64,000 nt of DNA from an uncultured candidatus Porisulfidus sp. (GCA_965215125.1 OZ244052.1:128001-192000), one strand, 5' to 3'; counted from the first letter of the stretch, positions 4,358 to 60,300 are shown. The notes: generated from the sequence alone by a model not told the origin. Made by a program: numbers and translations.

Positions 4358-7300
4358 CTACTGCAGAGGACCTTCCAAGAATACCTTGACGCGGATGCGT
4401 AATGCGGATCCTTGTATGTGTACAATATAATTTGCTTCGGTATAGCCGTCTTCGGTGTTGTCGGCACGTCTCACTACGATGACAATTCGGGCACTTCCTC
4501 CCGTCAACGGGATGCTATCGGAAATAGCAATACGATCTGCACCGGCGACTAGGGTCACCGGATTATCGTCTTTGACATAGTTATTTGCACGATCATCGCC
4601 TAACCAGACACTTTGAATACCGAGACCGGTAGTGGTTGCCGATGCCGAGATTACGGTTTCGTCAACCGCATCCGAAACTTCGCCGATGTACAGGGTTCCG
4701 GAATCGTCGTCGGGATCTGTCTCAAGGGTAATATTGCTCATTGCGAGAGCAAACCCTAAGGTCGTTCTATCCATTGCCGAGGCACGCGATACGGTCACGG
4801 TATAAGTTGCCATCGGCACTTCGGTATCCTGTGCGGTCACTACGATAGTGAATACTTTATTCATTCCTTCGCCAATCGTAATCGGTAGATCCACCCGATT
4901 ATTAGCGGGACTCGGGGCATTGCTCCCCTCTCTAATTGTCAGCGTTGCATGCACATTATCGGCAACCGCAGTTAGGGTTGTATTCGCTATATCATTAGGC
5001 AGTTCTACAGAATAGCGGGTTGGTTGATTAGCCACCGCAGGATCGAAACTAAATCCCGCCACCGCTTCGGACAACACTTCCAGCATACTCAACCGCGTAT
5101 CTCGGCTCGGTTGCCGCATAATCGTCACCGTATAGGTCTTGCTCGTCTCGTTGTCCTGGGCAAGCACTTTGATTTTGACTTCCTTCGTTTCGCCTTCGTC
5201 TACGGAAATAGTATCGTTTATGCTACGCGTACCCAACGATACGCCGTCTACCGCAAGACCGTCTATGGTATAGCTTATAATCGTCGCACTACTATGCTCC
5301 ACTTGCGCTTCCAAACGAAGCTCGGTTATTTTGTCGCCGACTATCGGATTAGCAATGCGATACACATAACTCGTGCTTGTTGCCAGATTGTCGAAGCTCG
5401 TCGCCATACCGCCGTCCGGTAATACCCTCAAAACATCCAAGTTGGCATTACTACTTATTTCACGGGTCGCACGCACCACATAGGTATTTGTTGCCACATT
5501 CGGTGCCGTCAGTACTATACTAATGACTTTAGTCTGTCTCACATCGAATGGAATTGAAACACCGCCGTCATCGGCTTGTGCTAGTTCTACATCTCCCTCG
5601 AATATCGTATACACAGTCTCTTCGTCTTCCGAAGGTAGCATAGGTATGACGGTGAGCGTCGAACTATCGTTTGCAACCGTCACCGTATAGTTCCGCACAA
5701 AAGGATTAAATTCGTACGGACTGTCGGCTTTAAGCCCGATCAATTCCAAAGCCTCTAAAATTATTACATCACCTATGTCGACGATATAGCTTGCTTCGGT
5801 ATAGCCGTCTTCGGTGTTGTCGGTGCGTCTTAGTACGAGGACGATCCGAATTTGTCCTTCGGGCAATGAAACGGTATCGGAAACAGATGCTAAATTCTCA
5901 TCCAAGGTTTGAGCCGTTCCATCCTTGATACGCTCCTCGCCGTTCACTAGGACGCTTCGGATACTGACGCCGGTAACAGTTGCCGATGCCGAGATTACGG
6001 TTTCGTCAACCGCATCCGAAACTTCGCCGATATAGACAGTTCCGGAATCGTCGTCGGGATCTGTCTCAAGGGTAATATTGCTCATTGCGAGAGCAAACCC
6101 TAAGGTCGTTCTATCCATTGCCGAGGCACGCGATACGGTCACGGTATAAGTTGCCATCGGCACCTCGGTATCCTGTGCGGTCACCACGATAGTGAATACT
6201 TTATTCATTCCTTCGCCAATCGTAATCGGTAGATCCACCCGACGATTAGCGGGACTCGGGGCATTGCTCCCCTCTCTAATTGTCAGCGTTGCATACACAT
6301 TATCGGCAACCGCAGTTAGGGTTGTATTCGCTATATCACTAGGCAGTTCTACAGAATAGCGGGTTGGTTGATTAGCCACCGCAGGATCGAAACTAAATCC
6401 CGCCACCGCTTCGGACAACACTTCCAGCATACTCAACCGCGTATCTCGGCTCGGTTGCCGCATGATCGTCACCGTATAGGTCTTGCTCGTCTCGTTGTCC
6501 TGGGCAAGCACTTTGATTTTGACTTCCTTCGTTTCGCCTTCGTCTACGGAAATAGTATCGTTTATGCTACGCGTACCCAACGATACGCCGTCTACCGCAA
6601 GACCGTCTATGGTATAGCTTATAATCGTCGCACTACTATGCTCCACTTGCGCTTCCAAACGAAGCTCGGTTATTTTGTCGCCGACTATCGGATTAGCAAT
6701 GCGATACACATAACTCGTGCTTGTTGCCAGATTGTCGAAGCTCGTCGCCATACCGCCGTCCGGCAATACCCTCAAAACACCCAAGTTGGCATTGCTACTT
6801 ATTTCACGGGTCGCACGCACCACATAGGTATTTGTTGCCACATTCGGTGCCGTCAATACTATACTAATGACTTTAGTCTGTCTCACATCGAATGGAATTG
6901 AAACACCGCCGTCATCGGCTTGTGCTAGTTCTACATCTCCCTCGAATATCGTATACACAGTCTCTTCGTCTTCCGAAGGTAGCATAGGTATGACGGTGAG
7001 CGTCGAACTATCGTTTGCAACCGTCACCGTATAGTTCCGCACAAAAGGATTAAATTCGTACGGACTGTCGGCTTTAAGCCCGATCAATTCCAAAGCCTCT
7101 AAAATTATTACATCACCTATGTCGACGATATAGCTTGCTTCGGTATAGCCGTCTTCGGTGTTGTCGGTGCGTCTTAGTACGAGGACGATCCGAATTTGTC
7201 CTTCGGGCAATGAAACGGTATCGGAAACAGGTGCTAAATTCTCATCCAAGGTTTGAGCCGTTCCATCCCTGATACGCTCCTCGCCGTTCACTAGGACGCT

Positions 7301-10300
7301 TCGGATACCGAGACCGGTAGTGGTTGCCGATGCCGAGATTACGGTTTCGTCAACCGCATCCGAAACTTCGCCGATGTAGACAGTTCCGGAATCGTCGTCG
7401 GGATCTGTCTCAAGGGTAATATTGCTCATTGCGAGAGCAAACCCTAAGGTCGTTCTATCCATTGCCGAGGCACGCGATACGGTCACGGTATAAGTTGCCA
7501 TCGGCACCTCGGTATCCTGTGCGGTCACCACGATAGTGAATACTTTATTCATTCCTTCGCCAATCGTAATCGGTAGATCCACCCGACGATTAGCGGGACT
7601 CGGGGCATTGCTCCCCTCTCTAATTGTCAGCGTTGCATACACATTATCGGCAACCGCAGTTAGGGTTGTATTCGCTATATCACTAGGCAGTTCTACAGAA
7701 TAGCGGGTTGGTTGATTAGCCACCGCAGGATCGAAACTAAATCCCGCCACCGCTTCGGACAACACTTCCAGCATACTCAACCGCGTATCTCGGCTCGGTT
7801 GCCGCATGATCGTCACCGTATAGGTCTTGCTCGTCTCGTTGTCCTGGGCAAGCACTTTGATTTTGACTTCCTTCGTTTCGCCTTCGTCTACGGAAATAGT
7901 ATCGTTTATACTACGCGTACCCAACGATACGCCGTCTACCGCAAGACCGTCTATGGTATAGCTTATAATCGTCGCACTACTATGCTCCACTTGCGCTTCC
8001 AAACGAAGCTCGGTTATTTTGTCGCCGACTATCGGATTAGCAATGCGATACACATAACTCGTGCTTGTTGCCAGATTGTCGAAGCTCGTCGCCATACCGC
8101 CGTCCGGCAATACCCTCAAAACACCCAAGTTGGCATTGCTACTTATTTCACGGGTCACACGCACCACATAGGTATTTGTCGTTCCGTCCGGTGCCGTCAA
8201 CAAAAATTCTATACGATGTTCTCCCAACGCCAAATTGCTAATCGTCGCTTGTGCAACCACTACACCCGCCCGAGTTGAGGTTGTGATGTTGCCGATCGTA
8301 TTTGCATCCGAACTACGCATATCAAAATCTACCAACTCGTTCACTTCGGCGAACAGCGTTATCGTATCCACACTCATGGGAATCCGTAGCGGCGGCGTCG
8401 GCTGCAGATTGTCACCCGAAAAATCTCTGCGCTGCGCAACACCATTCTCGTCTTGCCAGGCCGCACTCCAGCCGTACAACGAAACATCGTATGCGCGGAA
8501 AATCGTATAGCTTCGAGTACTACTGCTATCGGTTCCTTGCCATACTGCGGTAATCACATTATCGCTATAATCCAAGTCTATGCGTATCGTATTGCGGTCT
8601 TCCGCAAGTAGCATGCCGTTGATAAAGATGCTTCCGCTTCTGGTGCGCGCCGTCACATCAACATGATCGGTTCCGGTAGGCACGCGATAGTTTTGATCAT
8701 TCTCCATGAAAACCGGGCTCAAACCGTCGGCATCTAAAATCAGCACATCAAAGCCACCTCTCTCGGAACTCGGTGATATCACATCCAGTACCAATTCCGG
8801 CGATGCCGGCAGCGGTACGGATACCAGAGTATCACGATAACCTTGCTTGTCCGAGTAGCTTAGCAGTACTCTATAAAAATCGGCAATCGCACCGCCGACG
8901 GTATAGCTTATAGCCGTTGCACCGTCAATATCGAACCAATTGCCGTCCGATTGCCGCTGCCATTGGTAGCGAATGTCGTTCGGATCACCGGCACCGTCGG
9001 GATCCTCCGCCAACTGTGCGCGGCTCAGAGTCGCTGCCGTATAGGTCAAATCTACCCGCGTCGGTGTACTAATGCCACCGATAACCCCGTTATTGTGTTT
9101 GGCAACCTCAAACGATAGCGATTCGGATACGGTTAAATCCTCGGCACTGCGTACCGTCAACATCGCACTCACCGTCTCGGCGGAACGGTCGGCGGAGATA
9201 AAATCGTCACGCAGATAAAACGACATAGACACACGCCTCGCACCACCGACTACGGTGCCGGTGGTCTCGGTGCGGTCTAAAAGCCTCACTTGTCGTTCGT
9301 CCACCGTCCACTCGTAACTCAAATCATCGCCGTCGGCATTAGAGAGCTCGCTGCTTAGCGTAATAAAATGCCCTTCTCTAATCGGTACCGAATCATTCAA
9401 CGGAGCACCGCCCTCACTTTCCGCAACGCTGCGGCTAATAGTAGCTACATCGGGAATCGTGATGAAAGTCAAACGATATTCCACATCCAAATTTTCCTTG
9501 CCGGTTATTTCGTAGGCTTCGGATGTCGTTATGCGTACCGTCGTCGTAGTAGAAAAGTCGGGAATCAAATCGTATTCTGCCGAACCCGCCGACATCGGCA
9601 CACCGTTAATCGCAATCATCGCATCGGGATGGTGTGTCGCTGCGATGATCTGAATTTCGGAAACATCGCCGGCTACCGGCACGGTATAGTGCTCAACCAT
9701 CACGGCATCAAAATTATCCTTAAGCCTCGCCCCGGTAAAACCGGCAATAGAAAGCCGTGGCTGTAGAGGACCACCGAACCTGAATTGTAAGTCTTGCAAA
9801 CCTAAGCGCTGGCGAGGCAATATATTCCCGCAATTCGGAGACGGCGTGGCGGTGCCGCAAGTGCTATCGCGATACTTGAGTGCAGGATATTGCCCGATGG
9901 TGCCGAAATCCCACCGCTCGGCACTCCAGTTGTAATAGGCTCGTGTCGCGGTAGAGCTTGGCTCCGACGATTTCAGGATTTCGGAACTAAAGCCTATAAC
10001 ATCGTCGGACCCGCCGTCGGATTGACCGCTGCGTTCGGTATCCCAATAACTTCGTTGTATGCGCGTTGCGGTGCTAATGCCGTAGACGAATCCTCTGTTC
10101 GATACACCGCCGAGCATACCGATTGAATAGCTGTCGCTTATCACATTGCTACCCGCAGCGATACCGACCAAACCACCGATCGAAGTACCGTCTGCGACTG
10201 CGGTTGCGGCATAGCTGTTAACTATACTCGAAGTTGATGCTTGTGAACTTAAAAAACCGATCAAACCGCCTATTTGCCGACCTCGGCTATTTACGCTACC

Positions 10301-13300
10301 GAGCGCATAACTATTGACAACCGATAACCCTTGACTCATCCTTCCGACTAAACCGCCGTGAGCAGTACCGCTACCACCTTCTACATCACCGGCTGCATGG
10401 CTATTGGTGATATCACTGCTTACAGAATTTACGAAATCACCGACCAAACCACCGACACTGCTATTTCCCGTCACATTACCGATAGCATAGCTATTGTTAA
10501 TTCCTCCGGCACTAGCAAATCCTACCAAACCACCGACCCGACTCAGTCCGCTTACATCGCCGGTGGCATAACTACCTAGGATCCTCCCGCTGGAATTACC
10601 TACCAAACCACCGATTGCTTCATCGGTTCCCGATATTGTGCAATTTGCCGAGCTGTCTCTAACCGTCGAGAATACGGATAACGTACCGACCAAACAACCG
10701 CCATTGAAATCACTTGCAACCGTACCGCTTAGTATATGGCTATCGCTTATGTTACTACCTCTGAATGAACCGACTAATGCACCTGTGTTAAGGGCTCCGG
10801 CTACAGCCACTCCGGCTAAGCGAACTTGCCTGATCTCCGTAGCCCCTTCGGGCACGCGACCGAACAAACCGATATTGGTTGTGGTGCTTGTTATGCTCAA
10901 ATTAGAAATCGTATACCCGTTGCCGTCAAAAACAGCCGTGAAGTCGTCAATCGGATCCCAGTTATCCCATTCGCCGACATCGGCGGCGGCATCGCTATAA
11001 CCGGCAAGATCGTCGAAATCCAAGTCTCTCGTCAACTCATAACCTCGGCATGCGGACGGGCTACCGGGACAGCCGTTGTTATTCGGGGTAGCATCGGCAC
11101 TCGCTCTATAAGCAGTGCCGTCCGGCTGATAGCGGATGGCATTTAATTGCTCTATAAAAAAGATCTCTATCAAGCCGTTTCCGTCCGCATCCACCGTCCG
11201 TATCGCGTCATACGGTGGTGCAGCAGAGACGGCGGTGTTGGAATAGCCTTGTCCGTCGGTATAGCTAACCGACAGCAGGTACTGCTCGCCGAGTGCCTCG
11301 GCAAGCACTTTATAACTTGCCGTCGTCGCACCGGAAATATCAACCACTCTGCCACTGACTTCGCGTTGCCACTGATACCGGATATTGGTAAAGGGACCGC
11401 CGTCTGCATCGCTGATTTGCGAGGCAAAAAGAACATTATCCATCCAGTAGGGCGCGGCGATTTCACCGTCGCTATCGGTCTTGACCAGATTTATCGTTAT
11501 ATCCCTATGCACAGAAACATTGCGATTATTTCTCTTTGCGACCTCCAGTCTGAACACCGCTTGCCCGTTATCGGTAGCTCCAGGAAGCAAATCGTCTCGC
11601 ACCCTCAAGCTAAACCTCCGCCGCTCGCCCGCTGCCGACAGAAGTTCGGGACCGCTCGTTTGGCTCCATGTATAAACCAGCGATGCATTGTCTGCCGAAA
11701 AACTGTTTGCTGCATCCAAGCGTAGCGTATCTCCCTCGCTCAGCGTAATGATGTCTTGTGCATTGAGCACCGACAAAGCATCCTCGTTGCGCGCATATCT
11801 GATTACCGCCTGTGGCAAAACATCGTCGGTCGCCGTAGGTAGCGGTGCCGAACGTTCAAATGTCGGTTGCGTACGAGGCTGCCCGGGCAACATCGCCCCA
11901 CACCTCGGCAGCGATGTCGCAGTGTCAAAATCGCAAGCCGGGTCGTCTCGATCCACACCTTCGGTATATTTGAGTAATGCGTAGTGTGTGTTGTTGCCGA
12001 AATCCCAAATATCGGCATCCCAATCTTCATAGGTCGTGCAGCTTCCGGTATTAGGTGCCGAAGCCGTGTTGATCGCAACAGAACAGGTTTGAGATGCATT
12101 CGGTGCCGTAGGATTTGTTAGTCTACCCATCAATCTCCGGTTATCTACCAAGTCCGGCCGCGTCACCGCATATTCAAAGAAGTTTTGATTGCGGGCACAG
12201 ATATAAGGGTTTCCACGCCAATAGCTATTCGTCGGTACACCGACTGTGCTGTCGGGGTCGTAGTTCAACAAACCGGCTACATTGACCTGAATCGCGCCGT
12301 TGTTTGTCGTGACAATGCCTCTGGGGCTATAATTCGGCCGATTGCACTGAGGCACCGATATGCTCCCGATGCCTGCTACTGCCATTAGTGTCGTGTTCGG
12401 TGAGAACGCACCTTGTATATACGCTCTACCGTTGACATAACTATTCTCGATGATTGACCTGCCGTTAAGATGTACACCGACCAAGCCGGCGATATACGGC
12501 GTGGTGCATGAGATACCGCCGAGCTGCACAATGCTACCATCTCGCACATAACTATTTTTAATCTCGCTGACCGCATCGGAGGTGTCGGTTTCTTGCGACC
12601 CGACCAGACCCCCGACTACGCAATGCCCGACTATCGTACGTCCTCCTTCTCCATAATAGCTATTGTGGATCCTCCCGCCGTTGCGATTCCTACCGACCAA
12701 GCCACCGACATTGATATTGCCGTTATTCGATATATTACCGTCGGAGTCCTGTACACTCACATCGATATTTACATAACTGTTGAGTATATAACCCTCGTTG
12801 ACACCGACCAAACCGCCCAACATTCCCCTATCGGCACGGATCAGCGGGTTATCTACGGGAGCGGTGCCTCTGTCCACATAGCTATTTCGGACCACACCGC
12901 CGCGGCGCACCAAACCGGCGATACCGCCCACATTTTTAATCCCTGCCAAGCCTTTAATGCCGGGATTGCTAAGACCCAAATTTTCAATTTTCCCGCCCTC
13001 ACCGATCTCGGAAAACAAACCGATATTGACTTGCGTGCCGGCACTACTGCGGCTTATGTTCAGGCGGCTGATAGTATGACCGTTACCGTTGAATGTTGCG
13101 TTGAATACGCCGCCTATCGACTGCCAGCCTTGACTACTCGGATCGGTGAATGTACCGTCGGCTACCGTCCAGCTGTTATTCGTCACACCCGAGCGATAAC
13201 TCGTAGCGTCGTGGAAATTCAAGTTTCTAGTTAATTCGTAGCCGAAGCATCCGAGGCTCGGACAACCGCGAGTATCCAGATTGCCGTCCTCGGTTCTCCT

Positions 13301-16300
13301 ATAGCCGCTGCCATCCGGTTGATAGCGAATGGCATCCAAATCTTCCAAATACCGAACCTCTATCAAACCGTCGCCATCAAAGTCTATGTCCTCGGCGTTG
13401 ACGATGGAATCACCGTCTATATCGTCGGAGGCAGGCGTTGCGTCGACGGTAACGATACCGGATACGACCGCGTCGCCGAGATAACCTTGACCGTCGGTGT
13501 AGAAAGCAACAAGACGGTATTGATACACTATCGCCTCGTTGGGTACCGTATACTCCATGCCGCTACTCGTCAAATCTACATTAACCCAATCGCCGCCCGG
13601 AGGACGTCGCTGGAACTGTCTCTCGGTATTGCTAAGCGCGCTACCGTCGATGTCGCGCAGCATCTCGCTCACGGTAATTTTGTCGTTATTCAGTGCCAGT
13701 GTAATATCTCCCGTTATCGGTCCGTTATTCACTTTGTTGATACGCGCCGATATTTCTGTGCCGAGATAAACTTGAGGGTTGCCGTTATCGTCGTCAACCG
13801 AGACTGCCAACCTAAACCGCACATCGCTGTGTTCGTCATCCGCAGCGACTAGATCGGCTTGCGGTGTCAATTTAAGGTTCAAGCTGTCGGCATCGGCAAT
13901 GTCCATGGTCGGGCCGGCGATTTGCGACCAGACGATATCCGAGCTGCCGGAATAGTTTCCGCTGATCGTAAAGGTATCGCCTTCGTTCAGGTTTATTGAG
14001 GCAACATTATCCAGACTTAGATCTTCACGAACCACATCAAAATAATATTCCATAAACCGATTGCCGTCGCGGATCTCCAGTGTGATTACTTGTGGACTGT
14101 TATCACCCAAAGTAATCGTATTGAAACCGGCAAAAGGACATCGCACACCGTCGCAATAGAGTGCGGCAAAAGTCGGTGTGGTGGCAAACCTAAGCGAAAG
14201 CGGCAGCCGGCTACTATCTGCATAGAGTCTGTATCTATTGCCATCTCTATAACGAAAGTCCTCGGTTATTGCGTTTGTTCGAGCTATCGCGACATTTTCT
14301 ACGCGTATACTTTCCAGTAGCGAGTCGTCCCATATCCGTGCTACGATGCGGCTGTCTGTCGTCTTCAGCGTCGGGTATTGTTTATCGGAACCGAAATCCC
14401 AATCGTCGGGATTCCAATTCGCATAAATATCGGTTGGTGATGTCGTCCCTTGCAACACTGCGGTGGTCCGACCAAGACCGAGGGGAGACAATCCGACATT
14501 GAGGTCCTGATCCCAATAGCTGTCCGTAACCGAAACGAGACCGGATGTCCAACCGACCAGGCCTAAAACGCTCACAACATCACCCGACCGGCGACCCGCC
14601 GCATAGCTGTCGGCGATATTCGACAAATCTAGGAAGCCGACCAAACCGCCGAATCCCTCAAATCGTATGTCGCTGTCGCCTAGCACGCAGTTTTGATTTA
14701 ACTTTGTCACATTGACCCTCGCATAGCTGTTTTCTATAGTACTAATAGCTTCCGGGGTGTTACGGTTCAACGAGTTATGCGCTCCGACCAAGCCGCCGAC
14801 CTGACAGTGCCCGGTCACCGAACCGACCGCATAGCTGTTTTCAATCTTTGCGCCACGCACATTGCTACCGACCAAGCCGCCGATGATGTTCTGTAGCCTT
14901 TGCGGTCGGTCGGAGACCAGCGAATGAATATAGGCATGTGCGAAGCTATGGCTAATCTCGCCGCCGTTATTCAAACCAACCAAGCCGCCGATTTTAGCCG
15001 CCGCAGCGGCAGTGTTGGGGGTGAGTGATGCCAATATCGTGCTACCGCTCACGCCGACATCGGATATGCGCCCTCGATTCTCGCCTGCCAAGCTACCTTG
15101 ATTTACGGCAACCACATCGGTATTGCCGGAACCCAGCGTATCGTAAATCGTGACATTTCTCAATCGTAGATTCTCAACTTCGGCATCTGAACCTAAGGTG
15201 TGGAACAAACCGATCGCATCGATGCCGTGCACACCACGCAGACTCAGATGGCGAATGTTATGGTTGTTGCCTCTGAACACCGCTTCAAACGGGTTGTCCG
15301 CGTCCGCTATCGGATGCCAATTCTCCATCCACTCGGCATTTACTATCCCCGAGCGATAGCTTGCAGCGTCGCGGAAGTTCAAGTTTCGTGTCAGTTCGTA
15401 GCCGCTGCATCCGGACACGGTCGCGGTGTTCGGACACCCGGCGTCAATCGCCAATAGCGTGCCGTCGGGTAGCGTCAGGGTGTATGCACTGCCGTCCAAA
15501 CTATAGCGCATCGCATACAAGTCTTCCAAAGTCTCAATTTCTATCAAGCCGTCGCCGTCGGCGTCGGCTAAAATTCTATCGGTATCAAAGCTGAAATAAT
15601 CTATCTCCAGCGTATATCTAAAAGTGTCTCCGGCACTACTAACCAACACGACGATCGCATCGTCAACCGTCGGGTCCAGCACAACCGGATCGCTCGTTGC
15701 ACCGTCGGCAACACTTATTTGGTTTCCGTTATAGGAAATAGTAATCAACGCATCGGGATCCATCGCTTGTGGTATTAGACGCAGTGCTCCTGTCACGCCG
15801 ATATACGCATTGAGACGATAGTACAGTCTTAAATTTTCAAATTGCGGTGACAGCTGTACACCGCCTAAAATCTGTAGATCGCTCAAGCCTTGAACCGCCA
15901 CATTGCCACATGTCGGCTGTCCGACACCACCGCATGCCGGATTGGCGCGATCATCGCCCACCGCATACTTAAGCCGTGGATATTCGTTGTCGGTGCCGAA
16001 ATCCCACACCGCCGTATCCCAATTCGCATAGATACCGGTTGCAGTGATCGGTGTTTGCAGCTGTTTTGTAGTTTGACCGATACCGCCGGCACTTCGCATC
16101 AATCCGCCGGTCTCTATGTCCCAATAGCTATCGACGACCTCGCCCCCGGTAGTATCGCCGATCAAACCGCCGCTTCCGGGCACATCGCTCACCGAGCCGA
16201 TGGCATAGCTATTGCGGATGTCACCGACACGATTACCACCGACCAAACCACCGATGGCGCGTCCCGCTAAAACGGCACCGAGCGAGTATGTGTTTGTCAA

Positions 16301-19300
16301 TGTACCGAAATTCAAGCCCACCAAACCACCGACACCGTTGACACCCGTCACCCTACCCAGTGCGTAGCTTGCTAAAACCTCTGCGCCGACTGCGTTGCGA
16401 CCGAGTAGCGCACCGACACCGTCGACACCCGATACGTTCCCGACCGCATAGCTGTTGACTATACGCGCATCAATGTTGCTTCCGACCAAGCCACCGACAT
16501 CGTTGCCACCCGACACCGAACCGCTTGCATGGCTGTTATAAATCTTATCGGTGTTATAGCCGGCCAAGCCGCCGATATGTTGGCTTTCGCCGGTGTTCGT
16601 GGCGGAACCGATCACTACGACCTGGGCAGAACCCCCGTCGATCAAACCGTCGTTCTCACCTACCAAACCGCCGAGATATTCGTTGCCCGTCGCTTCGCCG
16701 GTAGCCCTGCTATTCACGATAGAACCACCTAAATTACGGCCGACCAAGCCACCTACACCGCTTTTGCCGGTGACCGATATCTCGGACAGCACAAGGTTGT
16801 GGATCTCGGCAGCGGCGTCCAAATACGAGAATAGTCCGACATTGTTGCGGTTCGGTGCGGTGATGTTCAAACCGGTAATCTCGTAGCCCGATGCTCGATT
16901 GCCGTCAAAAATTGCCGAGAAGCATCGGCTGTTTGCATCGCTACAATCGGATATTGACGATGCCGTACTTCCGATCGGCTGCCAATCGCGACCGGACAGG
17001 TCTATATCCGCAGCCAACTCGTAGCCGATACACCCCCCCGCAAACCGACAACCTGCGGTGATTTTTTCGGTTGCAGTAGAAGTTCTATAGCCTCTACCGT
17101 CGAGCTGATAGCGCATTGCGTTTAGGTCGGTACGGGTGCGTATTTCTATCAAGCCGTCGTTGTCCATATCCACATCGTTTATGTTTAGATTCGGGTGGCG
17201 GGAGGCAATAAAGGTATATGTGGTGCCTTCGCCGGTGTTCCTGAGGGAGACTTTAATCTCCACTGAGGTAGGGACACCGATACGCGGCGTGACGGTGCCG
17301 CTGTCAAAGCGGCCCAAATTGTTATCATCTACCGATAAGCGATAGGGAGTGCCGCTATAGTAGGTCGGCGTGGTGTGGAATTGCGTTGCCTCGGCTTTGA
17401 GTATTAGCTTATAGTTATAGATTTGCGAGTTCAGTGCCGGTATCAGCTGCAAAACATCGTCCGAGAAAGCCAAATCTTCTAAGCCGAGGTATTGTTCGGG
17501 CAATAATTCGCCGCAAATCGGCAATCGTGACGACGAATCGGAAGCCGAACGGCATGCCGCAAGGCTAACAATCGCACTGGTGGCAGTAGTGTATTTGAGC
17601 CGCGGATACTGTAGCGAAGTGCCGAAATCCCATGCCTCGGGATTCCAATTTGAATATATCCCGATTGCAGTGGTCTCCGATTGCAGTTGCATAGTGGTTC
17701 TAATCGTTCCGATGCCACCGCCGTTGCGGACCCCGCTGGTATTCTCATCCCAATAGCTCTGCGTATTAAATACAACCGGGTCGGGTAAATTGATACGACG
17801 TGCCAAGCCTAATCCGCCCATCGAGTTATTCGCACCGATTGCATAACTATTTAGAATGTTTGCGATCCTTCCGGCGGTGTCGGGCGTATCGACGAATCCG
17901 ACTAAACCGCTGCCTAAGTTGCCGTTAATCGTTCCCACCGCATAACTATCGGTGATGAGCGGCGTGGTGGTACGACCCAGTAAGTCACCCGGGGTATCTA
18001 GCGTCCGTCCGACCAAACCGCCGGCGTATCGGGCAACCGCATAAACCGCACCGGCTGCATAGCTACCATCGATAATTCCTCGGTGGGTGTCGGTGCTCGC
18101 TAAAAAACCGACCAAGCCACCGGCATAGCGATTTGCGCGCACCGAGACATTGGCATAGCTACCGACGATTACACCACGATGAACCCCGACCAAGCCACCA
18201 CCGTGATCGCCGGAAGCACGCACCGTGCCGGTCGCATGGCTGTTGACGATTTCGCCTACACCTTGCGCCTCACCGACCAAGACCCCGACATTGCCGGCTC
18301 CGATAAGTTCTGCATTCAACACACCGATACCTCTAATCGTCGTTGCGGAGGTTACCCCGAACAAGCCGAGGTCGTCGGCATCGGGACGATTGATTCTCAG
18401 GTGAGATATCGTATACCCGTCGGCGACGAACTCGGCAGTGAACGGATTCTCGGCATCGCCGATCGGTTGCCATCCTTCGCCTCTGACCCACAACGGCATC
18501 GCCTGCCGTGCATCTACATAACTCGCAGCATCGAGGAAATCCAAATCTCGGATCAATTCGTAGCCACGGCAACCCTCGGCGGGACACCCACTGTTTATCT
18601 TGATCGGGGGTGTGTTTGTCTCTATCGCATAGCTATATCCGCTACCGTCCAAGCCGTGTCGTATCGCGTCCAGCCATTCCAAAGAATCTATTTCTATCAA
18701 ACCGTCGCCGTCTTCGTCGGCGAGGTTGACACCGTCCAGACGACCCACCAAGGGCAGACGCTCGACGACGACACGATATTCAAAGCGATAATTCGGCCCG
18801 CGACTGACGACCATAACAATCTCGGTATCGGCATCGACGTTCAACACCACCTCTGCAAGGTTGCCACCTTCCAGTACTAGCGGTGGTAAATCGTTATCGG
18901 CTGTAATCTCAATATCCGAGGCAAAACCCGAAGCATCGGTTGCAGTCGTAGCCAAACGCAGACGGGGTGTGTCGGAATACACCAGCACGCGATAGTCGGA
19001 TATATTTCGATCGAAGTTCGGAGACAGTGCAAAATCATCCAATACCGAAAATTCTATATCTATATGTTGCAGATAGTCCTCTATTTTCCAACTGATCGTA
19101 TAGGTACGGCTGGTGCTACCGGAGTCTACCGTGAGGCTTGCCGAGTCAACGCTTTCGCCACCGTACGGGTATATCTCCGGGGTACGGGTGTTATCGGCAA
19201 TGATCTGTTCGGTGTTGCCGGCCCGATAGGTGACGGTGTCGGTGTGGTAATAAGCGGTCGGCGTGGTATGGAACACGGTGATCGTATTGCCTGTCACCAA

Positions 19301-51152: not shown

Positions 51153-52637
51153 ATGAATATCCATAGAAACAATATCGGGGTGGAAATATCTCCGTCGGTG
51201 TTGCGGGTTGCGAGCCTGCTCCGCGGCAAAGGCGTATTGCATTTAACGGCAACCGGTGAGGTGCGATTGCCTTATCGCGATTTCGACGATTTGTACAAAC
51301 ACCCCGAAGAGTGTGGCAGCGCACTGAACGATTTATGTACACGAAGCGGTATACAATCCGGCTACGCTATTACGACATTACCGGCATCGCATGCTAAATC
51401 AAAATGTGTCGCACTACCATTGATGAGCCGGCGGGCATTGTCGCGTAGGTTATCCAGCAGACACTTCTGGCATAAGCACTTGGGAGTCGGCAACGACAGT
51501 TATAGTTATGCTCGGCTGACAACGGTACACGATAAGCAACGGTATCGTTTATCGATCTATCTGATGGCGGCACCCAACATCACACTTGCTTTCTATAAGG
51601 CAGTGTTTGCGCACACGCAGCTATCGCTCGATGTATTGACACTTTCCTCATTGACATATTACGGCGTACAATACGAGCAACCCGTCGCTCGTCTGTTGGT
51701 CCTCAACGAATACGAGGCGTATCTGGCACACTTCGGGACAAATGTCTTCTCGCATCGGACGATATTGTCCGACTACGACCATAAAAATCTATGCGCATCG
51801 TCCGCCACCGAAATAGCTTGCGACGATAAGCGAGTAGCTACCGCTTTGCAACATTTATCCGAGTCTCTGCACGAGCGTTTGCGTAGCGAGCAAGGCGACA
51901 ACCATACCGTACATCTAATCGCTAATTTGAACCGACAAACAATCACACGATTAGAAACCCGGAGCTTGAACGATATCGTATTAAAGCCTTTGGATATCAC
52001 CGAGAACATCGAGCGGTCGGCACGAGTAAAAAATAATGATGCCACGATGTCGGCACCGATTGCGTTGGCGCATTGGCTGGTATCGCACCCTGCGACTTTC
52101 AAAACACAAGCCAACTTCATTCACAATCACCGTAATGTGTATTACAAAAGTGCCGCTTGCTGGATACTTTCAACGATTATCTCGGCGATACTATTCTTTC
52201 ATTATCAGCATATAGTCGCTTTGGATGCCGCACAGCATTCTCAACTGCTATACCAAGCACAATTATCGGCACGACAAAACGAATATAAAAACAACATCAA
52301 TGCGCTAAGGCAACGCATTGAACGACAACGACAAATGCGGACACAGATGCAATTTTTATCCGAGCGGCATCATTCGGCGATGATCTTATGGACACGCATG
52401 GGTGCCGTCATCCCTCAATCCATCAAGATAGAAAGCATAGATTGCCGATGGCAAAACAGCTGTTTGATAACCGCCGCCACAGACGATTACGGACAACTTA
52501 TACACTTTGTAGAGCAGCTGGAGCAACTGGATATGATCCACGAGGTCTCTGTAGACAGTAGTCAAACAATGCAAGAACATCCTAGTGCAATGCAATTCAC
52601 GCTCACCTGCAAGCTCAATAACGGAATAGATGAATGA
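51153..52637 (+). CDS. PilM-PilN fusion (GspL-like architecture) of a type IV pilus/type II secretion-like assembly platform
   Basis: N-terminal IGVEISPSVLRV resembles the PilM actin-fold start. ANFI (PilN INLL-like) precedes one TM segment, a coiled coil and a PilN-type C-terminus (IPQSIKIESI...LIHFVEQLEQ...FTLTCKL). First gene of an M-N-O-P-Q ordered operon. Confidence 0.7.
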   Translation: MNIHRNNIGVEISPSVLRVASLLRGKGVLHLTATGEVRLPYRDFDDLYKHPEECGSALNDLCTRSGIQSGYAITTLPASHAKSKCVALPLMSRRALSRRLSSRHFWHKHLGVGNDSYSYARLTTVHDKQRYRLSIYLMAAPNITLAFYKAVFAHTQLSLDVLTLSSLTYYGVQYEQPVARLLVLNEYEAYLAHFGTNVFSHRTILSDYDHKNLCASSATEIACDDKRVATALQHLSESLHERLRSEQGDNHTVHLIANLNRQTITRLETRSLNDIVLKPLDITENIERSARVKNNDATMSAPIALAHWLVSHPATFKTQANFIHNHRNVYYKSAACWILSTIISAILFFHYQHIVALDAAQHSQLLYQAQLSARQNEYKNNINALRQRIERQRQMRTQMQFLSERHHSAMILWTRMGAVIPQSIKIESIDCRWQNSCLITAATDDYGQLIHFVEQLEQLDMIHEVSVDSSQTMQEHPSAMQFTLTCKLNNGIDE

Positions 52638-53296
52638 CTGCGCAGAACGACAATGCCATGAACAACGACATCGGTGGCAACGATTGGACGAGTATGTTCG
52701 CATACCGTGTTTATAGATATTTTAATCGCTCCGACAATCGCCTATACAACCCGAACGATTTGTATCGCTCCGTCGTCTATATCTCGCTGGCACTCTCGCT
52801 GATCGTTCCCGGTGCTTGTTTTGTGGGCTTTGTATATCCGACAGCGGTGGACTATGCAACGACTAAAGCACAGCTCGCATCCATCCCTATGCTAAAGCGA
52901 CAAATCGCACAACTGGATAAGATGTACCGAAGTACACACATAACTTTGACCGAATTGGAGACCGATTTTCCGCCGGCTTCATTAGATAATGCAACGCTAC
53001 ACCACAATGCCATAGATCTGCATCGCATGGCACACAATCATCGGCTAAGGATCGTGGCGACGAACACTATAAACGACCATCGAGTAATGCCTCGATTCAC
53101 CGAGTATTTCACGACAACGCATTACTCGTGGCATTTGCAAGGACGATTCACCGATTATCTCAGATTCAAAAAAGCACTTTGGAAGGCCAGCCCCTCGACA
53201 CAAATGGAGCGCGAGCATCTCTCGACAAGGGATGACCGGCAACTCGATATCGTCGTTGATCTCAGCGTGTATCAACCCGTAAAGGTTAACTTGTAA
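52634..53296 (+). CDS. PilO/GspM-like inner-membrane protein
   Basis: One TM segment, coiled coil, LQGRFTDYLRF resembling the PilO G.Y....F motif; ATGA overlap with the upstream gene; operon position. Confidence 0.6.
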   Translation: MTAQNDNAMNNDIGGNDWTSMFAYRVYRYFNRSDNRLYNPNDLYRSVVYISLALSLIVPGACFVGFVYPTAVDYATTKAQLASIPMLKRQIAQLDKMYRSTHITLTELETDFPPASLDNATLHHNAIDLHRMAHNHRLRIVATNTINDHRVMPRFTEYFTTTHYSWHLQGRFTDYLRFKKALWKASPSTQMEREHLSTRDDRQLDIVVDLSVYQPVKVNL

Positions 53297-53303
53297 AAGC
53301 ATC

Positions 53304-53702
53304 ATGTTTGTAAGACCGCGATATAAGCCAACCCTACCGATGGTTACATGGTTGCTATGCCTACTTTGTTTGATTGTTCCGTTTTCGAGTGCCGACGGCG
53401 TAGAAGTTATTGCACGCGAGAATCATTTTCAGACTCACGAGAAACTTTCGCAACCGGCAAAACCGAAGCAACGGCAAATTGATCCACTCACAGCTTATCC
53501 GGTGCAACGGTATGTCGTACACGGTGTTATCGTCGCGGCGGACAACGCAATAGCGGTTGTTTATTCGCCGCACAATACTTGGCATAGATTGCAAGTGCAT
53601 ACGCAATTAGGACAAGAGCAAGCGGTCATTCAACAAATTACAACCAGGGGTATACAAATAAAGATGCAAAACACACTGTTATGGCTACCGGTATTGCCAT
53701 GA
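53304..53702 (+). CDS. pilP: PilP-like (GspC HR-type) protein
   Basis: DPLTAYPVQRYVVHGVI...AIAVV...LGQEQAVIQQIT matches the PilP beta-domain pattern; lies directly before the secretin gene. Confidence 0.7.
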   Translation: MFVRPRYKPTLPMVTWLLCLLCLIVPFSSADGVEVIARENHFQTHEKLSQPAKPKQRQIDPLTAYPVQRYVVHGVIVAADNAIAVVYSPHNTWHRLQVHTQLGQEQAVIQQITTRGIQIKMQNTLLWLPVLP

Positions 53703-55129
53703 ATGTCGTAATGAAAATCGCTTGCATATTTTGTTTTGCGGTAGTCGCCGTTGCGTTGTTATCGGCTTGTGCTTATTTTGAAAAACCGGCTATACCTTCG
53801 GACGAGCCTTTGATAGATCAACAGGCTTTTATCAACCAACACCACACTGTGCGTCCGCCCTCGCCGCCGACACGATCGTCGGCGGTATCTTACCGGCAAC
53901 GGCGTATCCCGTTATTATCCGAACCTTTACCGTCGCACGAAGCTGCCACAGCAAAGCCGGCGATGATTAGTTTGAGGTTGGTCGGTGTACCACTACGCGT
54001 CTTTGCGTCTATGTTGTCCGATTTAACCGGTCATAACATTCTCATCGCACCCGATGTGAACGGCACCGTCAACTACGATCTCAATCGCATTGGCTGGCGC
54101 GATGCACTGCATACCATTGCCGAATTGCACGGGCTTAGGGTTGACGAATACACCGATAAAAAACTAATACAACTTTATAAAAATACCGGTAAACAAAAAA
54201 ATACAAACGCACGGATGAACGGGCGATCGGCAAAAGCGCACAATGTCGAACTATTCAAACTGCGTTATGCCGACGCCGAGAAAATCGCAACCCTACTAAA
54301 ATCTCTATTGGCTGCGCAACAAAAGAAACCCGGTAATAACGACGATACTTCGGTGGTCGAAAGCTCGGTGGTCGGCGATAAAAGCAGTCACTCCTTAATC
54401 GTACAGGGTGATCGACAAACCATAGAACTCGCTGCCTCGTTGATCGGCACGATAGATGTGCCGCAACGACAAGTGATGATAGAAGCGTTTATCGTAGAAG
54501 CCGGCGAAGATTTCACACGCGCGTTGGGCGCGCGCCTGGGCAAACACAAAGGCGGGGTTTTCAACACCGACAACATTAACGGCCCTTATCTTAATGTGCC
54601 GGTTGCCGGGGGCAGCGGTGGATTGGGTTTGACTTTCGGTAGTGCACGCATACGCGTAGAGCTGAGTGCCTTGGAAAAAGCCGGCAAGAGCCGACTGATA
54701 TCAAATCCCAAGATCTTCACACTGGATAATCAATCGGCAATGATATTTGAAGGTAGCGAAGTGCCCTATCAAACGGTCTCCGACAGCGGCACACAGACCG
54801 AATTCAAACAAGCGGGACTCAAACTCGCAGTCACCCCGAGTATCGTCAACGAACAACATCTGATGCTGGATTTGGCAATCAACAAAGATACCGTAGACAC
54901 TCGGCTACAAAACCCACCGATCACACGCCGTGAATTGACGAGCCGCCTGTTGGTGCGTAGCGGCGATGTGGTCGTCATCGGCGGCATCTATCTCAAAAAG
55001 CAGGTGCGAGCATTTGAAGGCATGCCTTTTATTACGCATCTACCGTTTATCGGTGATTGGTTCCGATACAAAAGACGCGAAGGCGATGTTAAGGAATTGA
55101 TGGTCTTTATCGCGCCGCAAATCGTATGA
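53699..55129 (+). CDS. pilQ: Secretin (PilQ/GspD family) with lipoprotein signal
   Basis: FKLRYADAE, IDVPQRQVMIEAFIVE, LSALEKAG...ISNPKIFTLDNQSA, GLKLAVTP and VVIGGIY...ELMVFIAPQIV motifs; lipobox LLSAC. ATG at 53699 overlaps the pilP stop (ATGA); the ORF track start is 53681. Confidence 0.9.
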   Translation: MNVVMKIACIFCFAVVAVALLSACAYFEKPAIPSDEPLIDQQAFINQHHTVRPPSPPTRSSAVSYRQRRIPLLSEPLPSHEAATAKPAMISLRLVGVPLRVFASMLSDLTGHNILIAPDVNGTVNYDLNRIGWRDALHTIAELHGLRVDEYTDKKLIQLYKNTGKQKNTNARMNGRSAKAHNVELFKLRYADAEKIATLLKSLLAAQQKKPGNNDDTSVVESSVVGDKSSHSLIVQGDRQTIELAASLIGTIDVPQRQVMIEAFIVEAGEDFTRALGARLGKHKGGVFNTDNINGPYLNVPVAGGSGGLGLTFGSARIRVELSALEKAGKSRLISNPKIFTLDNQSAMIFEGSEVPYQTVSDSGTQTEFKQAGLKLAVTPSIVNEQHLMLDLAINKDTVDTRLQNPPITRRELTSRLLVRSGDVVVIGGIYLKKQVRAFEGMPFITHLPFIGDWFRYKRREGDVKELMVFIAPQIV

Positions 55130-56310
55130 GTAGGCAATTAACACTAGACGGGCATAGCGAAGTCATCTATTTCGTCGAAGCGATGCTCCGTCAAGCTCTA
55201 AGCTACAACGCCAGCGATATACACATAGAGCGATACGATGCCGGTAGCCGATTGCGCTATAGACTCGACGGCGTACTGCAAGAAGTGCAAACCGATGACT
55301 TTATGCAAGTGCAATATGCCGGTATCGTATCCAGAATCAAATTACTCGCCGGATTGGATATTGCCGAGCGCAGATTGCCTCAGGACGGACGCTTTTCCTT
55401 TGACGACGATAGTGCGTGTGTTGATATTCGCGTCTCTATCGTGCCGTCGCTATCCGGCGAGCGTATCGTGTTGAGACTGCTCGACAGCGGCGGCTTCACA
55501 CCGCGCTTGGATGCGCTCGGTATGAACGAACAACACTTAAGTTTGATGCAACAAGCATTAAAGCGTAACCAAGGTATGCTACTGGTCACCGGACCTACCG
55601 GTAGCGGCAAGACGACAACCCTATACGCCGGCATACACGCAATCAACCGTTCCGATATCAACATTCTTACCGCCGAAGACCCGGTTGAATACAAAATCGG
55701 CGGCATCAATCAAGTGGAAGTGAAAGAAACAATCGGTCTGGGGTTTGCCGATATACTGCGGGCTTTTTTGCGGCAAGACCCCGAGGTGATTTTGGTCGGT
55801 GAAATGCGCGACTACGAGACTGCCGATATCGCAATCAAAGCCGCATTAACCGGGCATCTAGTTATGAGCACCTTGCACACCCGAAATATCACCGGCACTA
55901 TCGCACGACTCATTAACATCGGGATACCCGCCTATTTGGTCGGTGCTGCCGTCAATCTTATCGTCTGTCAGCGTCTGCTTAGAAAAATATGCTTGCATTG
56001 CAAAGCACCCTGCCATTCTATACCGTCGGCTTGGCAGTCCAAAGTCAACGGCAAAGGGCCGTCGCAGTTATATCACGGTCGCGGGTGCAAACACTGTCGT
56101 TATACCGGTTTCTCCGGCAGACAGGCCGCTTATGAAATGCTGGTAGTGGACGACGAACTCGGACACCTCATATCAAACTATACCGATTCGCCGGCGACTG
56201 CCGATCTACAATTAAAGAAACGTTGCAGCACAACTTTGCAGCAAGCAGGTATGGAATTGTTGCAGTTAGGCATCATCAGCCCCGAGGAATACTTGCGGGT
56301 ATTGGCTTAA
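55126..56310 (+). CDS. GspE/PilB-family secretion ATPase, short form lacking the N-terminal domain
   Basis: ASDIHIE, LDIAERRLPQDG, Walker A GPTGSGKTT, TAEDPVE, LRQDPEVILVGEMRD, GHLVMSTLHT and the CxxC...CxxC zinc motif. Confidence 0.93.
   Translation: MSRQLTLDGHSEVIYFVEAMLRQALSYNASDIHIERYDAGSRLRYRLDGVLQEVQTDDFMQVQYAGIVSRIKLLAGLDIAERRLPQDGRFSFDDDSACVDIRVSIVPSLSGERIVLRLLDSGGFTPRLDALGMNEQHLSLMQQALKRNQGMLLVTGPTGSGKTTTLYAGIHAINRSDINILTAEDPVEYKIGGINQVEVKETIGLGFADILRAFLRQDPEVILVGEMRDYETADIAIKAALTGHLVMSTLHTRNITGTIARLINIGIPAYLVGAAVNLIVCQRLLRKICLHCKAPCHSIPSAWQSKVNGKGPSQLYHGRGCKHCRYTGFSGRQAAYEMLVVDDELGHLISNYTDSPATADLQLKKRCSTTLQQAGMELLQLGIISPEEYLRVLA
56178..56223 (+). repeat. 46-bp exact direct repeat, copy 1 (inside the ATPase gene)
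   Basis: CTATACCGATTCGCCGGCGACTGCCGATCTACAATTAAAGAAACGT is identical to 56995-57040. Confidence 0.95.
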
Positions 56311-57385: not shown

Positions 57386-60300
57386 TTATTGCAGCGGACC
57401 TTCAAGAAATACTTTAGCTCGGATGCGAATTCCCAAAGACTCTCGAATCACCTTGATCGTATAGGTGTTTGAGTTGGTACCGTCTTCGGACTCTACTTCG
57501 ACCTCAATGATATTGCCTGTATCGCCTAGCACATCCAACGGGATGTCGGTATTCGGCGGATAAACGGTGCGACTATTCATGAATACCGAAGTAATAGTCG
57601 TTACACCGTTATTATTCGTCGTGGGTATCACTTTTATGGTCTCGGTCGTATTGGAAACATTGACCGTATAAACGAAGGTTGCGGTAGTATAATCGGGTTC
57701 CAACTTACCGGGTGATACTTCCAAATTATGCAAAGTAGCATCGTCGGCATCAAACAATCTAATCAGCGTCACGGTATAACTTTTAGAGGTTTGATCGTCG
57801 TTTGCTATGACTTTGATTCTGACCACAGTCTCAAAACCTCGCATCGTTTTCCGCCCCGGCCATACAACGACTTCTTTACTTGCAAGGTCTTCCAACGCTC
57901 CGTCATCGACCGAAATTTGGATGCTCGCATGCTCGGTGTCGCTTGCAGTGGCAGTAACTCTAAGCTCTTCGGTATCGTTGCTCACCGAAACGGTATAGGT
58001 TGTGATCTCGCTGCTAAACAGAGGGAGCGGAGAAATAGGAATGCCCGCTTTGGTTATTTGCAGGTTACTCAAATTCGCGTCCACATTCAACGCTCGGAGT
58101 ACCGATACGGTATAAGTCATCGAAGATACACCGTCTTGAGCGAGTACCATAATATCCATCAGTGTCATCTCACCCGGCACCAATTCAATCGGATTGCTCA
58201 ATAATTCTCCTTCGGAAATTTCCGTATCGTTTTCTTCGGCGTCGGGATCCACGGCTAATCCGAGTAAGAAATTAAACGGATCTTCGGTGTCGTCGCGTCT
58301 GCTAATTATAATCGTTGCACTGCTATGCTGTGTTTCAATTCTGGTTCTAAGACTTTCAACCGTATTTTGATAAAAAACGATATTACTCATCATAGTACCG
58401 CTATCCGACACCAACTCTTCTTGATTCTCCGACAACGGGAACAATGTTAACTTCGTCAGAGCTACATCACTACTGTACGGGCGGAACACCGAAACGATAT
58501 AGGTTGCGCTACTTCCGTCGTTCGCTACGACTTTGAAATCAACAAACGTTATTTTATTTTCGCCGAGCTCAACGGTTCTGCGCATGACACCTCCGACAAT
58601 ATCGGGATTGTCGTCGGCTACTATGCTCGCGCGCGGCTGATTTGCTTGTGCGGTTATTACGAGGCGACCGAGCGCGTTGGGAACTCGTAATTCATAGCGT
58701 GTTCGGGTTGTCGCAAAATCGGGAGTCAGAGGTATAGGATCGCCGTTCTCTTCACTGAGTCTAAGATACTTTAGGCTTTTGTCATCGCTGGGAGTACGAA
58801 TTACGAATATCGTATAACTTTGCGAGTTCACCCCATTTTCCGCAATCACCGTGATTTGCACGGGTCGCCGCACATTGATTTCTTCCGCCAATTCTATATC
58901 GATACTGCGATTAACGAGCGAGGCACCGTCTACTTGTAGACTTGCCCCACTGTCGGCAGCCAGAGGAATCATTTGTATGATTTTTACATCGGTTGAAACA
59001 CTTACTTGATAATTTCTATCGCCGTCAAAATCGTCTAAGCCCACGATTTCAAAAGGTGTTTCCGAATTGTGTTCGTATAACGCAACGCTATTCAAATCGT
59101 CGTTATTGCTATCCCGAGCGTCTCGCCTCACTCTGATTCTATATGTTTTGTCTGTTCCGTTTTCTGCGGTCACAACGACAACGATATTATTGGTGCTGGC
59201 TTCCGCACCGGCAGCTTTTAATCCGACGCGGCGCGAGCCGGGTTCTACGGGTTCACCGTTTATTTCTATCTCAATCGTTGCGTCATCGTCTTCGGCTTCG
59301 GCAATCACCTCAAGCTCTGCCGTATTATTTGTAACACCGGTTTCGTATGCGGTAGTCTCGGCATCGAAGGCACGGTCCAACTTTGCTCCGACGATGTTCA
59401 GAACAGCTAGATCGGCATTATCGTTGGGTGCACGACTTAGTAATAGGATATAACTTTGCGAGCTTTGGTCGCTTGACATGACCTTAATGCGCACTTGATT
59501 CCTCGTACCCGATATCACCGCAAAAGCCTCACTTTCAATTTCTTTATTCGCTATGCGGCGATGGCTGATCTCGTTATCGTTGACCGTAATCTCAATCTCG
59601 GCATCCTCATCGATAACCGTAGCCTTCACTCTGACCGTTTTTACACTCTTGCTAATCGTCGTTTCGTATTCATAGACATCGTCTTCAAAAGACGGAGTAT
59701 ATATCCGTACTGCCGCCTCGGGTTTCAATGTCAAGGATGTCAATCTATTGTCATTTCCGATACGCTCCACTAATACACTATGAACTTTAGAGGTCATATC
59801 ATCTCGAGCGATTAATTTAATCTCGTAGGTGTTCATTCCTCTCTTCAGATTATCTATGATGCCAATCGCTTCGCTTCCGATTGCCGAGTCTTCGTTCAAT
59901 AGAACCCGCACACTACTATCTCTGGCAAGTGCTCTTATTACGATTTCTTCCACACGAATAGGAATCGTATAACGATGGCTTGGCTGCTCGATATCATCCG
60001 ACATCAATTCTTCGTGCGTTGACACAAACCGCTGTTCTCCCGCTTCTAGAATCAAACTTTCGAGACTCAAATCAAATTCACGGATCACCGTCACGGTGTA
60101 TGTGTGGGTACGCTTTCCCGGAGCCGATACTTCTATCTCGATCGTATTTGCTCCGACATTCAACGGAATATTTTCCAGAAACGATCGACCGGTTGCCAAC
60201 ACTATGCCGTTTGCGCTGATTTTAACCGTCGCCTCGGGTGTCGGCCTTGTTATTACCGTAATCGTCTTGGTTGAATTAGCAACCGTTGCTTGATATTCGG

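Follow-up and report, generated by a model that had tools for sequence, protein, structure and literature searches.

What is the function of a short tail shared by the ends of two giant proteins? The question is raised by a window of 64,000 nucleotides (bases 128001-192000 of a single contig of 2,220,706 bases) from an uncultured candidatus Porisulfidus sp. (GCA_965215125.1, OZ244052.1). Giant 1 ends in ...GSALRIRVKVFLEGPLQ-TAG and giant 2 in ...ESLGIRIRAKVFLEGPLQ-TAA, with the common end RIRxKVFLEGPLQ-stop. An earlier reading of the sequence, the original prediction, had reported this tail together with six synonymous codon differences between its two copies (CGC/CGA, AAG/AAA, TTC/TTT, TTG/CTT, CCT/CCG and CAG/CAA). 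Both observations were confirmed, and the tail proved to be more widespread than had been stated. As set out below, we consider it probable that the tail, referred to here as the tag, is the detached first β-strand of a C-terminal module, the rest of which is made separately as an acceptor protein and is completed in trans by the tag, forming a naturally split domain.

The tail recurs in this genome far beyond chance. When the 2.22 Mb genome was scanned in six frames (39,247 open reading frames [ORFs], minimum 30 codons), [KR].[FYLIV]LEG[PA] occurred 16 times, in 14 cases exactly two residues ahead of a stop codon. These 14 copies belong to 12 canonical ORFs of 1,877-15,128 codons and to 2 fragments. 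A profile scan added 2 fragments and four large ORFs of 1,509-4,734 codons with the variant tails FLEGILQ, FLESPLQ, FLEGSLR and FLEGLLQ, for a total of 16 large tagged ORFs (12 canonical and 4 variant; 1,509-15,128 codons) and 4 fragments. By arithmetic, the 16 large ORFs sum to 84,937 codons, or ~11.5% of the genome. Sec-type signal peptides, mostly A-x-A followed by Q, were found on all 12 canonical ORFs. The residues F, L, E, G and P are unchanged in the 14 canonical copies and are encoded by 2, 4, 2, 3 and 4 codons, respectively, and the DNA immediately 3' of the stop codon is unlike between copies. Since invariant residues are combined with free synonymous codons and with differing DNA after the stop, the tail is a peptide under selection and not a DNA repeat, in agreement with the original prediction, which had argued against recent DNA copying.

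Related genomes carry the same tail. The strict DNA pattern FLEGP-x-[QR]-stop matched in 5/5 genomes of the genus, 11 to 34 times each, and gave 214 matches in genome G006, which belongs to another genus, and 2 in G014; a reversed-pattern control gave none in 41 genomes. No match was obtained in 400 other Gammaproteobacteria, a result that holds for the strict pattern only. This pattern misses variant tails: by it, 12 of the 19 genomes of the family appear tag-free, and a profile search finds variants in most of them. These variants are FLEGALQ-stop and FLEGALN-stop in G007, FLEGALE-stop in G017 and G018 (25 and 19 profile matches, respectively), FLQGALQ-stop in G009, FLGGAAR-stop in G012, FLSGVVR-stop in G015, and, in G010, G013 and G016, FLEGA[VM] or FLQGAV followed by 2 to 14 extra residues before the stop. 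Some of the G006 matches are tandem duplications of 117 to 168 nucleotides of gene 3' ends. At loci L052, L059 and L082 of that genome, the tag, its stop codon and the downstream spacer are present in 3 to 4 copies produced by tandem duplication, which suggests slippage or unequal crossing-over at conserved 3' ends.

Protein C-termini were searched by pattern and by profile, as had been proposed with the original prediction. In addition to the 14 of 16 terminal occurrences in this genome, profile A1, built from 147 tails and run on 1.84 billion representative proteins (expect value [E] up to 0.001), returned 136 matches; the tail is the extreme C-terminus in 134, and the other 2 are unrelated. 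Among 183 unique tails, in which positions -11, -9, FLEGP and -1 are imposed by the search pattern, the consensus from -14 onward is L/I/V, R, L/I/V, R, x, K/R, V/L/I, F, L, E, G, P, L, Q/R; the boundary of conservation is sharp at -14, with none upstream. A scan of 185,579 species genomes returned at least 181 stretches, and the 80 matches listed, which have no bearing on other taxa, are all from metagenome-assembled genomes (MAGs) titled Candidatus Oxydemutatoraceae or candidatus Porisulfidus, both Gammaproteobacteria. These MAGs appear to be sponge associated. In the portions of the literature available to us, the tail motif did not appear in a relevant context, and the module motifs were absent or occurred in unrelated papers only. 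A look for RNA evidence from the tag-acceptor locus listed none.

In giants 1 and 2, the domain ahead of the tail is cadherin-like, and the original prediction had named the last strand of that domain as the reading that would undo its own. This explanation is refuted, and we assign it almost no probability. By Pfam, the last cadherin-like domain (PF12733) in giant 2 spans 387-482 of 499 residues and is complete against the model (3-89 of 89), and the tag occupies residues 486-499, beyond it. In an AlphaFold2 model of the last 210 residues of giant 2, the final strand is formed by residues 183-192, and the tag, at 197-210, shows no strand (predicted local distance difference test [pLDDT] score ~59). 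The identical type of tail also stands behind unrelated segments, namely immunoglobulin-like, Cys-rich, helical and Pro-rich ones; judged from sequence, the tag is a modular unit that can come after these as well as after cadherin-like segments. Among 45 smaller cargo proteins, 30 had no Pfam domain, and the remainder yielded He_PIG (7), PPC (3), Big_9 (2), GLUG (1) and an InlB-type repeat (1). A crude signal-peptide heuristic was passed by 57 of 101 database cargo proteins, and most of the other 44 seem to be gene calls truncated at the N-terminus; the claim of signal peptides on cargo is limited to the 12/12 of this genome.

The statement that the tail is not an LPXTG, PEP-CTERM, GlyGly-CTERM, RTX/type I secretion or aromatic-ended signal was likewise upheld. 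The 100-residue tails matched no NCBIfam family, even with E allowed to reach 10; on 499-residue pieces, the one match was to SdhE (E 0.19), which at 11.7 bits falls below the cut-off of 120, lies away from the tail and is attributed to chance. A transmembrane-anchored sorting domain of the LPXTG, PEP-CTERM, GlyGly-CTERM or MYXO-CTERM type was rejected because the protein stops 2 residues past FLEGP and no curated model matches. An outer-membrane β-signal was rejected because the tail terminates in L-Q or L-R with no barrel domain ahead of it.

In other lineages, the motif opens a larger unit, a C-terminal module of ~230 to 280 residues. The module begins with K[VI]FLEGPY, continues in a ~190-residue β-rich core (...LP..(Q/D)PY..., VVDWVLVELR, RHRNHL) and closes with a dockerin-like calcium-binding end. 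The longer homologs include a protein of a Calditrichia MAG and proteins with subtilisin, amylase or metalloprotease domains. A strand of the FLEGPY type opens the module in 6 of 11 longer homologs (KVFLEGAY, KIFLEGPY twice, AFLEGAY, AVLEGPY and LLLEGAY) and lies upstream of the DW motif, at a distance of 40 to 48 residues in the 3 homologs in which the gap was measured. A seventh homolog with the DW motif has KAFLGGDF, and the module is terminal in all 7. The statement in the original prediction that KVFLEGP(Y) opens a domain elsewhere was thus borne out in proteins of other lineages, although not specifically for Bacteroidota. Pfam, NCBIfam and PDB contain no sequence relative of the module core, and only the last ~55 positions match dockerins.

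Both forms of the module occur within the family. Genome G005 is fused and its congeners G010 and G013 are split. In G005, a 2.4 Mb genome of a sister genus, at least 17 ORFs exceed 3,000 codons (maximum 17,496), each with an unsplit module at its end; 25 ORFs in all carry the fused module, 17 of them over 3,000 codons, and the smallest has 687 codons. The four ends of giant ORFs examined in this genome all read ...V.V.AR[AV][YLV]LQGA[YL], ~20 residues, LP..QPY ... VVDWVL[VI]ELR ... HHRNHLSVMS ... dockerin-like repeats and stop. Neither a tag-profile match (E up to 0.05) nor a small acceptor ORF standing alone was found in G005. In the fused forms of G005, G012 and other lineages, the motif h-x-h-[KR]-h-[FLY]-L-[EQ]-G-[PA]-[YL] stands directly ahead of ...M..L...LP..PY; in the tags, the same motif is followed by the stop codon. 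Intermediates within the family end in FLQGALQ-stop, FLEGALE-stop and FLGGAAR-stop, and in G012 an odd L-G-G-A is common to the tag (...RLRVFLGGAAR-stop) and the fused form (...INVLLGGAVRG...). AlphaFold2 predicted the unsplit G005 module (model m75a6ceeae68f) with a mean pLDDT of 87.9 and a predicted template modeling score of 0.87, and placed the tag-equivalent LRVKVR in a strand at residues 23-28 within a block of pLDDT ~95. In this prediction, the tag-equivalent strand appears as an integral part of the unsplit module. The module was found in 17/19 genomes of the family and in 0/34 genomes of the order's three other families.

The homology of the tail to the start of the module would also fit a functionless relic, left by a stop codon that truncated the C-terminal module. 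We regard a relic as very improbable, since it is contradicted by the conservation pattern: the invariance of F, L, E, G and P under free synonymous change in 14 copies, the terminal position kept in 134/136 global profile matches, and the presence of the tail on many nonhomologous cargo proteins. With ~14 residues beside the stop codon, basic residues and a G-P, the tail also bears a resemblance, and only that, to a nascent-chain arrest or termination-pausing peptide of the SecM kind, which would act in the ribosome tunnel and couple the end of translation to export. We give this explanation hardly any credence. The tails of genus g2 carry 2 to 14 further residues, so that the motif does not keep a constant distance from the stop, and the same strand is internal in the fused modules.

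The remainder of the module is encoded separately in this genome, which holds exactly 3 module ORFs, all of them small secreted proteins of 264 to 335 residues, and no fused form. This acceptor family was reached through a small ORF in G014, where the acceptor sits between giant genes; the ORFs of that island yielded nothing but the acceptor. The acceptor layout is a signal peptide, ...LP..DPYC..., VVDWVLVELR, ARKPAFLLSNGRVVDA, LYLVVRHRNHLD, Y.YDF and dockerin-like repeats. In alignment A4, mature acceptors begin with the segment just after strand 1 of the fused forms, so that exactly the first segment is missing, and a strand-1-like motif was found in 0/30 stand-alone acceptors in the protein database. 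Proteins lacking the first strand of the module, proposed with the original prediction as partners of the tail, therefore exist in this genome, and they adjoin tagged genes (Table 1). At 5/5 such loci in G000 (1), G001 (2) and G004 (2), ...RVKLFLEGPFR-stop is followed, at ~50 nucleotides or less, by an acceptor ORF. Tags or their variants co-occur with acceptors in all six genera. Through its dockerin-like end, one of five acceptors scanned matched PF00404 (Dockerin_1) at E 7.9e-5 and with 23.2 bits, above the 22.9-bit cut-off, and the acceptor profile matches PDB dockerins at positions ~213 to 270 (best E 1.2e-6).

A further feature of alignment A4 lies at columns ~60 to 85, in which the hydrophobic core of the acceptor signal peptide and its ...G-A-x-A-Q cleavage region are aligned with strand 1 (...LLQGAY) of the fused forms. 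This may be an accident or a trace of the fission that created the signal peptide.

Judged by position and motif, the tag is homologous to strand 1; the acceptors are strand-1-less, their genes are adjacent to tagged genes, and the two components are co-distributed. In the mechanism that we propose, the cargo would retain only a 14-residue strand, with alternating hydrophobic and Arg/Lys residues and then FLEGPL[QR], and the remainder of the module would be a separate Sec-exported acceptor without that strand. After export, the tag would fill the acceptor's empty strand position in trans, by donor-strand complementation. Insertion would rebuild the module, and its dockerin-like end would then attach or route the cargo. 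In this manner, a single type of acceptor could be shared by the 16 cargo proteins of this genome, and in a relative by more than 100. Whether the system amounts to a natural one-to-many tag-and-catcher, in which one small secreted acceptor combines with any of 16 to more than 100 cargos to restore a surface-docking module and which arose by gene fission in one family, is in our estimation an evenly balanced matter.

Several points weigh against donation of the tag to the acceptor. The binding of tag and acceptor, its location and the role of the rebuilt module are what we infer. The tag profile scored 3 to 5 bits at the right place in only 3 of 19 distant fused modules and in 0/7 from G005, the segment being very short; because these scores are weak, the homology of tag and strand 1 rests on position, motif, intermediates and context. 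G008 has acceptor matches and no tag-profile match at E up to 0.5. The Pfam cohesin PF00963 gave no match in this genome at E up to 0.1, a search that divergent cohesin-like folds could escape. A simple search found no acceptor columns co-varying with the Pro/Ala difference of the tags. Finally, G006 combines 214 pattern matches with one acceptor gene, an imbalance that demands very unequal expression or exchangeable binding.

The tail could instead be an autonomous secretion or anchoring signal, read by an envelope machine such as the type II system, the second secretin system, BamA or the lipopolysaccharide surface, with the acceptor-like proteins being nonbinding paralogs that lack strand 1. 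The signal peptides on 12/12 canonical tagged ORFs are in keeping with this, as is the presence in the genome of a Gsp type II system, of a single Omp85 and, between the giants, of a second secretin operon. The alternating Arg and hydrophobic residues would suit an anionic surface. Moreover, in seven genomes of three genera (G000, G001, G003, G004, G006, G010 and G013), an acceptor gene lies 8.6 to 17.6 kb from gspC, a proximity that may mark either a conserved synteny or a functional tie to type II secretion. An autonomous signal nevertheless leaves unexplained why the tail corresponds to the first strand of a module that is otherwise encoded separately, beside tagged genes, and why the genome with fused modules is free of tags. 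In addition, GspC is present in 19/19 family genomes and has no PDZ domain by Pfam, and no tag-specific machine component was found in the flanks of tagged genes. We therefore hold an autonomous signal to be unlikely.

The original prediction had proposed a donor strand or recognition peptide that docks passengers onto a partner or secretion machine, which is partly supported here; in one version of it, the tail would be recognized by the divergent pilMNOPQ-ATPase system between the two giants. In G001, the one relative within the genus in which this was looked at, a tag is situated ~3.7 kb beyond the secretin ortholog, and the ortholog is specific to the family (18/19 family genomes and 0/34 in the rest of the order). 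The proposed check of co-occurrence of tag and operon does not discriminate: the secretin is as family specific as the tag system, and the acceptor module shows the same pattern, 17/19 against 0/34. Because secretin and module share this coarse pattern, which amounts to a single phylogenetic event, co-occurrence neither supports nor excludes a link to the operon. Against such a link, G011 keeps the secretin without an acceptor match at the threshold used or a convincing tag match (weak tag-profile matches in short ORFs only), the operon is apart from tagged genes in G006 and G014, and it contains no pilin or platform gene. A role of the tail in recognition by this operon is accordingly quite improbable.

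Overall, the export machinery of this genome comprises the Gsp type II system, a type III system, one Omp85, one TolC and the secretin operon of the window. The type III cluster (SctC, SctD, and CesT-type and tetratricopeptide repeat chaperones) adjoins gspC-gspD-gspA-like-gspE (genome 1484-1504 kb), and gspF to gspN are at a separate locus (genome 1308-1316 kb), 3 kb from a tagged gene. Other candidates were considered and rejected. A dedicated Omp85/TpsB partner does not agree with the presence of only one Omp85 in the genome, and a TolC route does not agree with the signal peptides of the cargo, although TolC is present. A CPBP/Rce1-like protease encoded near giant 2 was considered as a required tail-clipping enzyme; it is absent from the tagged genera g2 (0/4) and g5 (0/3) and is therefore not required, and in G001 it is split. 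Its NCBIfam matches to Mrt-type proteases are far below the cut-off. The flanks of tagged genes (27 ORFs scanned) were mostly housekeeping.

Table 1. Coordinates of tagged genes, acceptor genes and the secretin operon (window, positions in the 64,000-nucleotide stretch; genome, positions in the contig)
Feature	Position	Strand	Remarks
Tag of giant 1	window 4361..4402	minus	14 codons, LRIRVKVFLEGPLQ; stop TAG at 4358-4360
Giant 1	window 4358..49279	minus	14,973 amino acids counted from first start codon; N-terminal Sec-type signal peptide, Calx-beta, GLUG-type repeats, cadherin-like domains, tag last
Tag of giant 2	window 57389..57430	minus	14 codons, IRIRAKVFLEGPLQ; stop TAA at 57386-57388
Giant 2, part inside window	window 57386..64000	minus	C-terminal 2,204 codons; continues beyond 64000
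Giant 2, entire ORF	genome 185386-207123		7,245 codons stop-to-stop; N-terminal signal peptide outside window
Third tagged gene, N-terminal part	window 1..2031	minus	genome 119937-130061, 3,374 codons; ends ...LLRVKLFLEGPFR-stop
Acceptor	genome 119096-119920		starts 17 nucleotides past stop of third tagged gene; this acceptor gene and the tag it adjoins are ~8 kb outside window
Acceptor	genome 1544917-1545681		abuts start of tagged gene 1545662-1558540
Acceptor	genome 1505129-1505986		~1 kb after gspE
PilM/N-like, unknown, PilP-like, secretin, GspE/PilB-type ATPase operon	window 51153..56310	plus	between the two giants

Other features of the window were also recorded. In translation, the C-terminal part of giant 1 (window ~4400-12000) contains three near-identical tandem blocks of several hundred residues each, which suggests a recent internal duplication. 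An IS3-family element (orfA, and orfB with an rve integrase core; 49596-50671) lies between giant 1 and the secretin operon, and a protein with a PBECR2 (barnase/EndoU/colicin-like nuclease) domain is encoded directly past the ATPase gene (56414-56809). Tetrahydromethanopterin-linked genes, encoding a methylene-tetrahydromethanopterin dehydrogenase N-terminal domain and a GHMP-kinase-like protein, lie between two tagged giants (2303-4222), and further ORFs resembling those of the tetrahydromethanopterin or formaldehyde pathway stand beside other tagged genes. Hairpin repeats of ~48 nucleotides with a CCCCTCC...GGAGGGG core are found in tandem at 50835-51029, reading as PPLEGWQASPDGVVHS in one frame, and as single copies just downstream of both giants (4290-4345 and 57320-57345); from their sequence, they look like repetitive extragenic palindromic (REP)-type intergenic elements or terminators. 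A second intergenic hairpin repeat, GCCGATTGA-N9-TCAATCGGC followed by ACGTTGTGCAGAAC, was found downstream of 7 of 14 tagged gene ends (e.g., 57290-57320).

A tag completing an acceptor in trans would have partial parallels among known systems. In chaperone-usher pili, donor-strand complementation and exchange fill an acceptor fold that lacks one β-strand with a short alternating-hydrophobic donor from another polypeptide. The predicted arrangement described here is similar in both respects. Unlike in those pili, many unrelated cargos would each provide the donor as their very last residues, the acceptor is one small soluble secreted protein, and there is neither a pilin polymer nor a chaperone or usher gene beside the acceptor. 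The type V pili of Bacteroidia are homotypic polymers, primed by proteolysis, in which each subunit inserts a C-terminal strand into the groove of the one that follows. There, too, the donor is C-terminal; the proposed system would differ in being one-to-many, heterotypic and derived by gene fission of a C-terminal module. The dockerin-like end of the acceptor and its adaptor logic recall cellulosomal cohesin-dockerin pairs, but the cargo would join by a single strand and not by a folded dockerin, and no Pfam cohesin was found in this genome. In marking the C-termini of many secreted or surface proteins within one genome with a short conserved signature, the tag is like those of the LPXTG/sortase, PEP-CTERM/exosortase and MYXO-, Synerg- and JDVT-CTERM/CPBP types. 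It differs from such enzyme-cut sorting tags in having no transmembrane helix, no basic tail and no NCBIfam match, and in that the nearby CPBP protease is absent from the tagged genera g2 and g5. Finally, SpyTag/SpyCatcher and the green fluorescent protein pair GFP11/GFP1-10 are engineered systems in which one strand of a domain, used as a small tag, restores the fold on joining the remainder. In contrast to these, the present system would be natural, presumably noncovalent, and evolved in a symbiont lineage.

If the tag completes the acceptor in trans, this would constitute a principle of sorting or display not described so far, in which one strand, in place of a whole domain or a cleavable anchor, marks the cargo and a shared adaptor supplies the rest. 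It would be an evolved natural counterpart of engineered split-tag tools, and it would supply a function for the C-terminal module, itself unannotated, that secreted proteases, amylases and adhesins of other phyla carry. For the organism itself, a small symbiont genome would have replaced a module of ~230 to 280 residues on every adhesin with 14 codons. Completion in trans would also explain how a genome of 2.2 Mb handles tagged ORFs that make up such a large share of its DNA.

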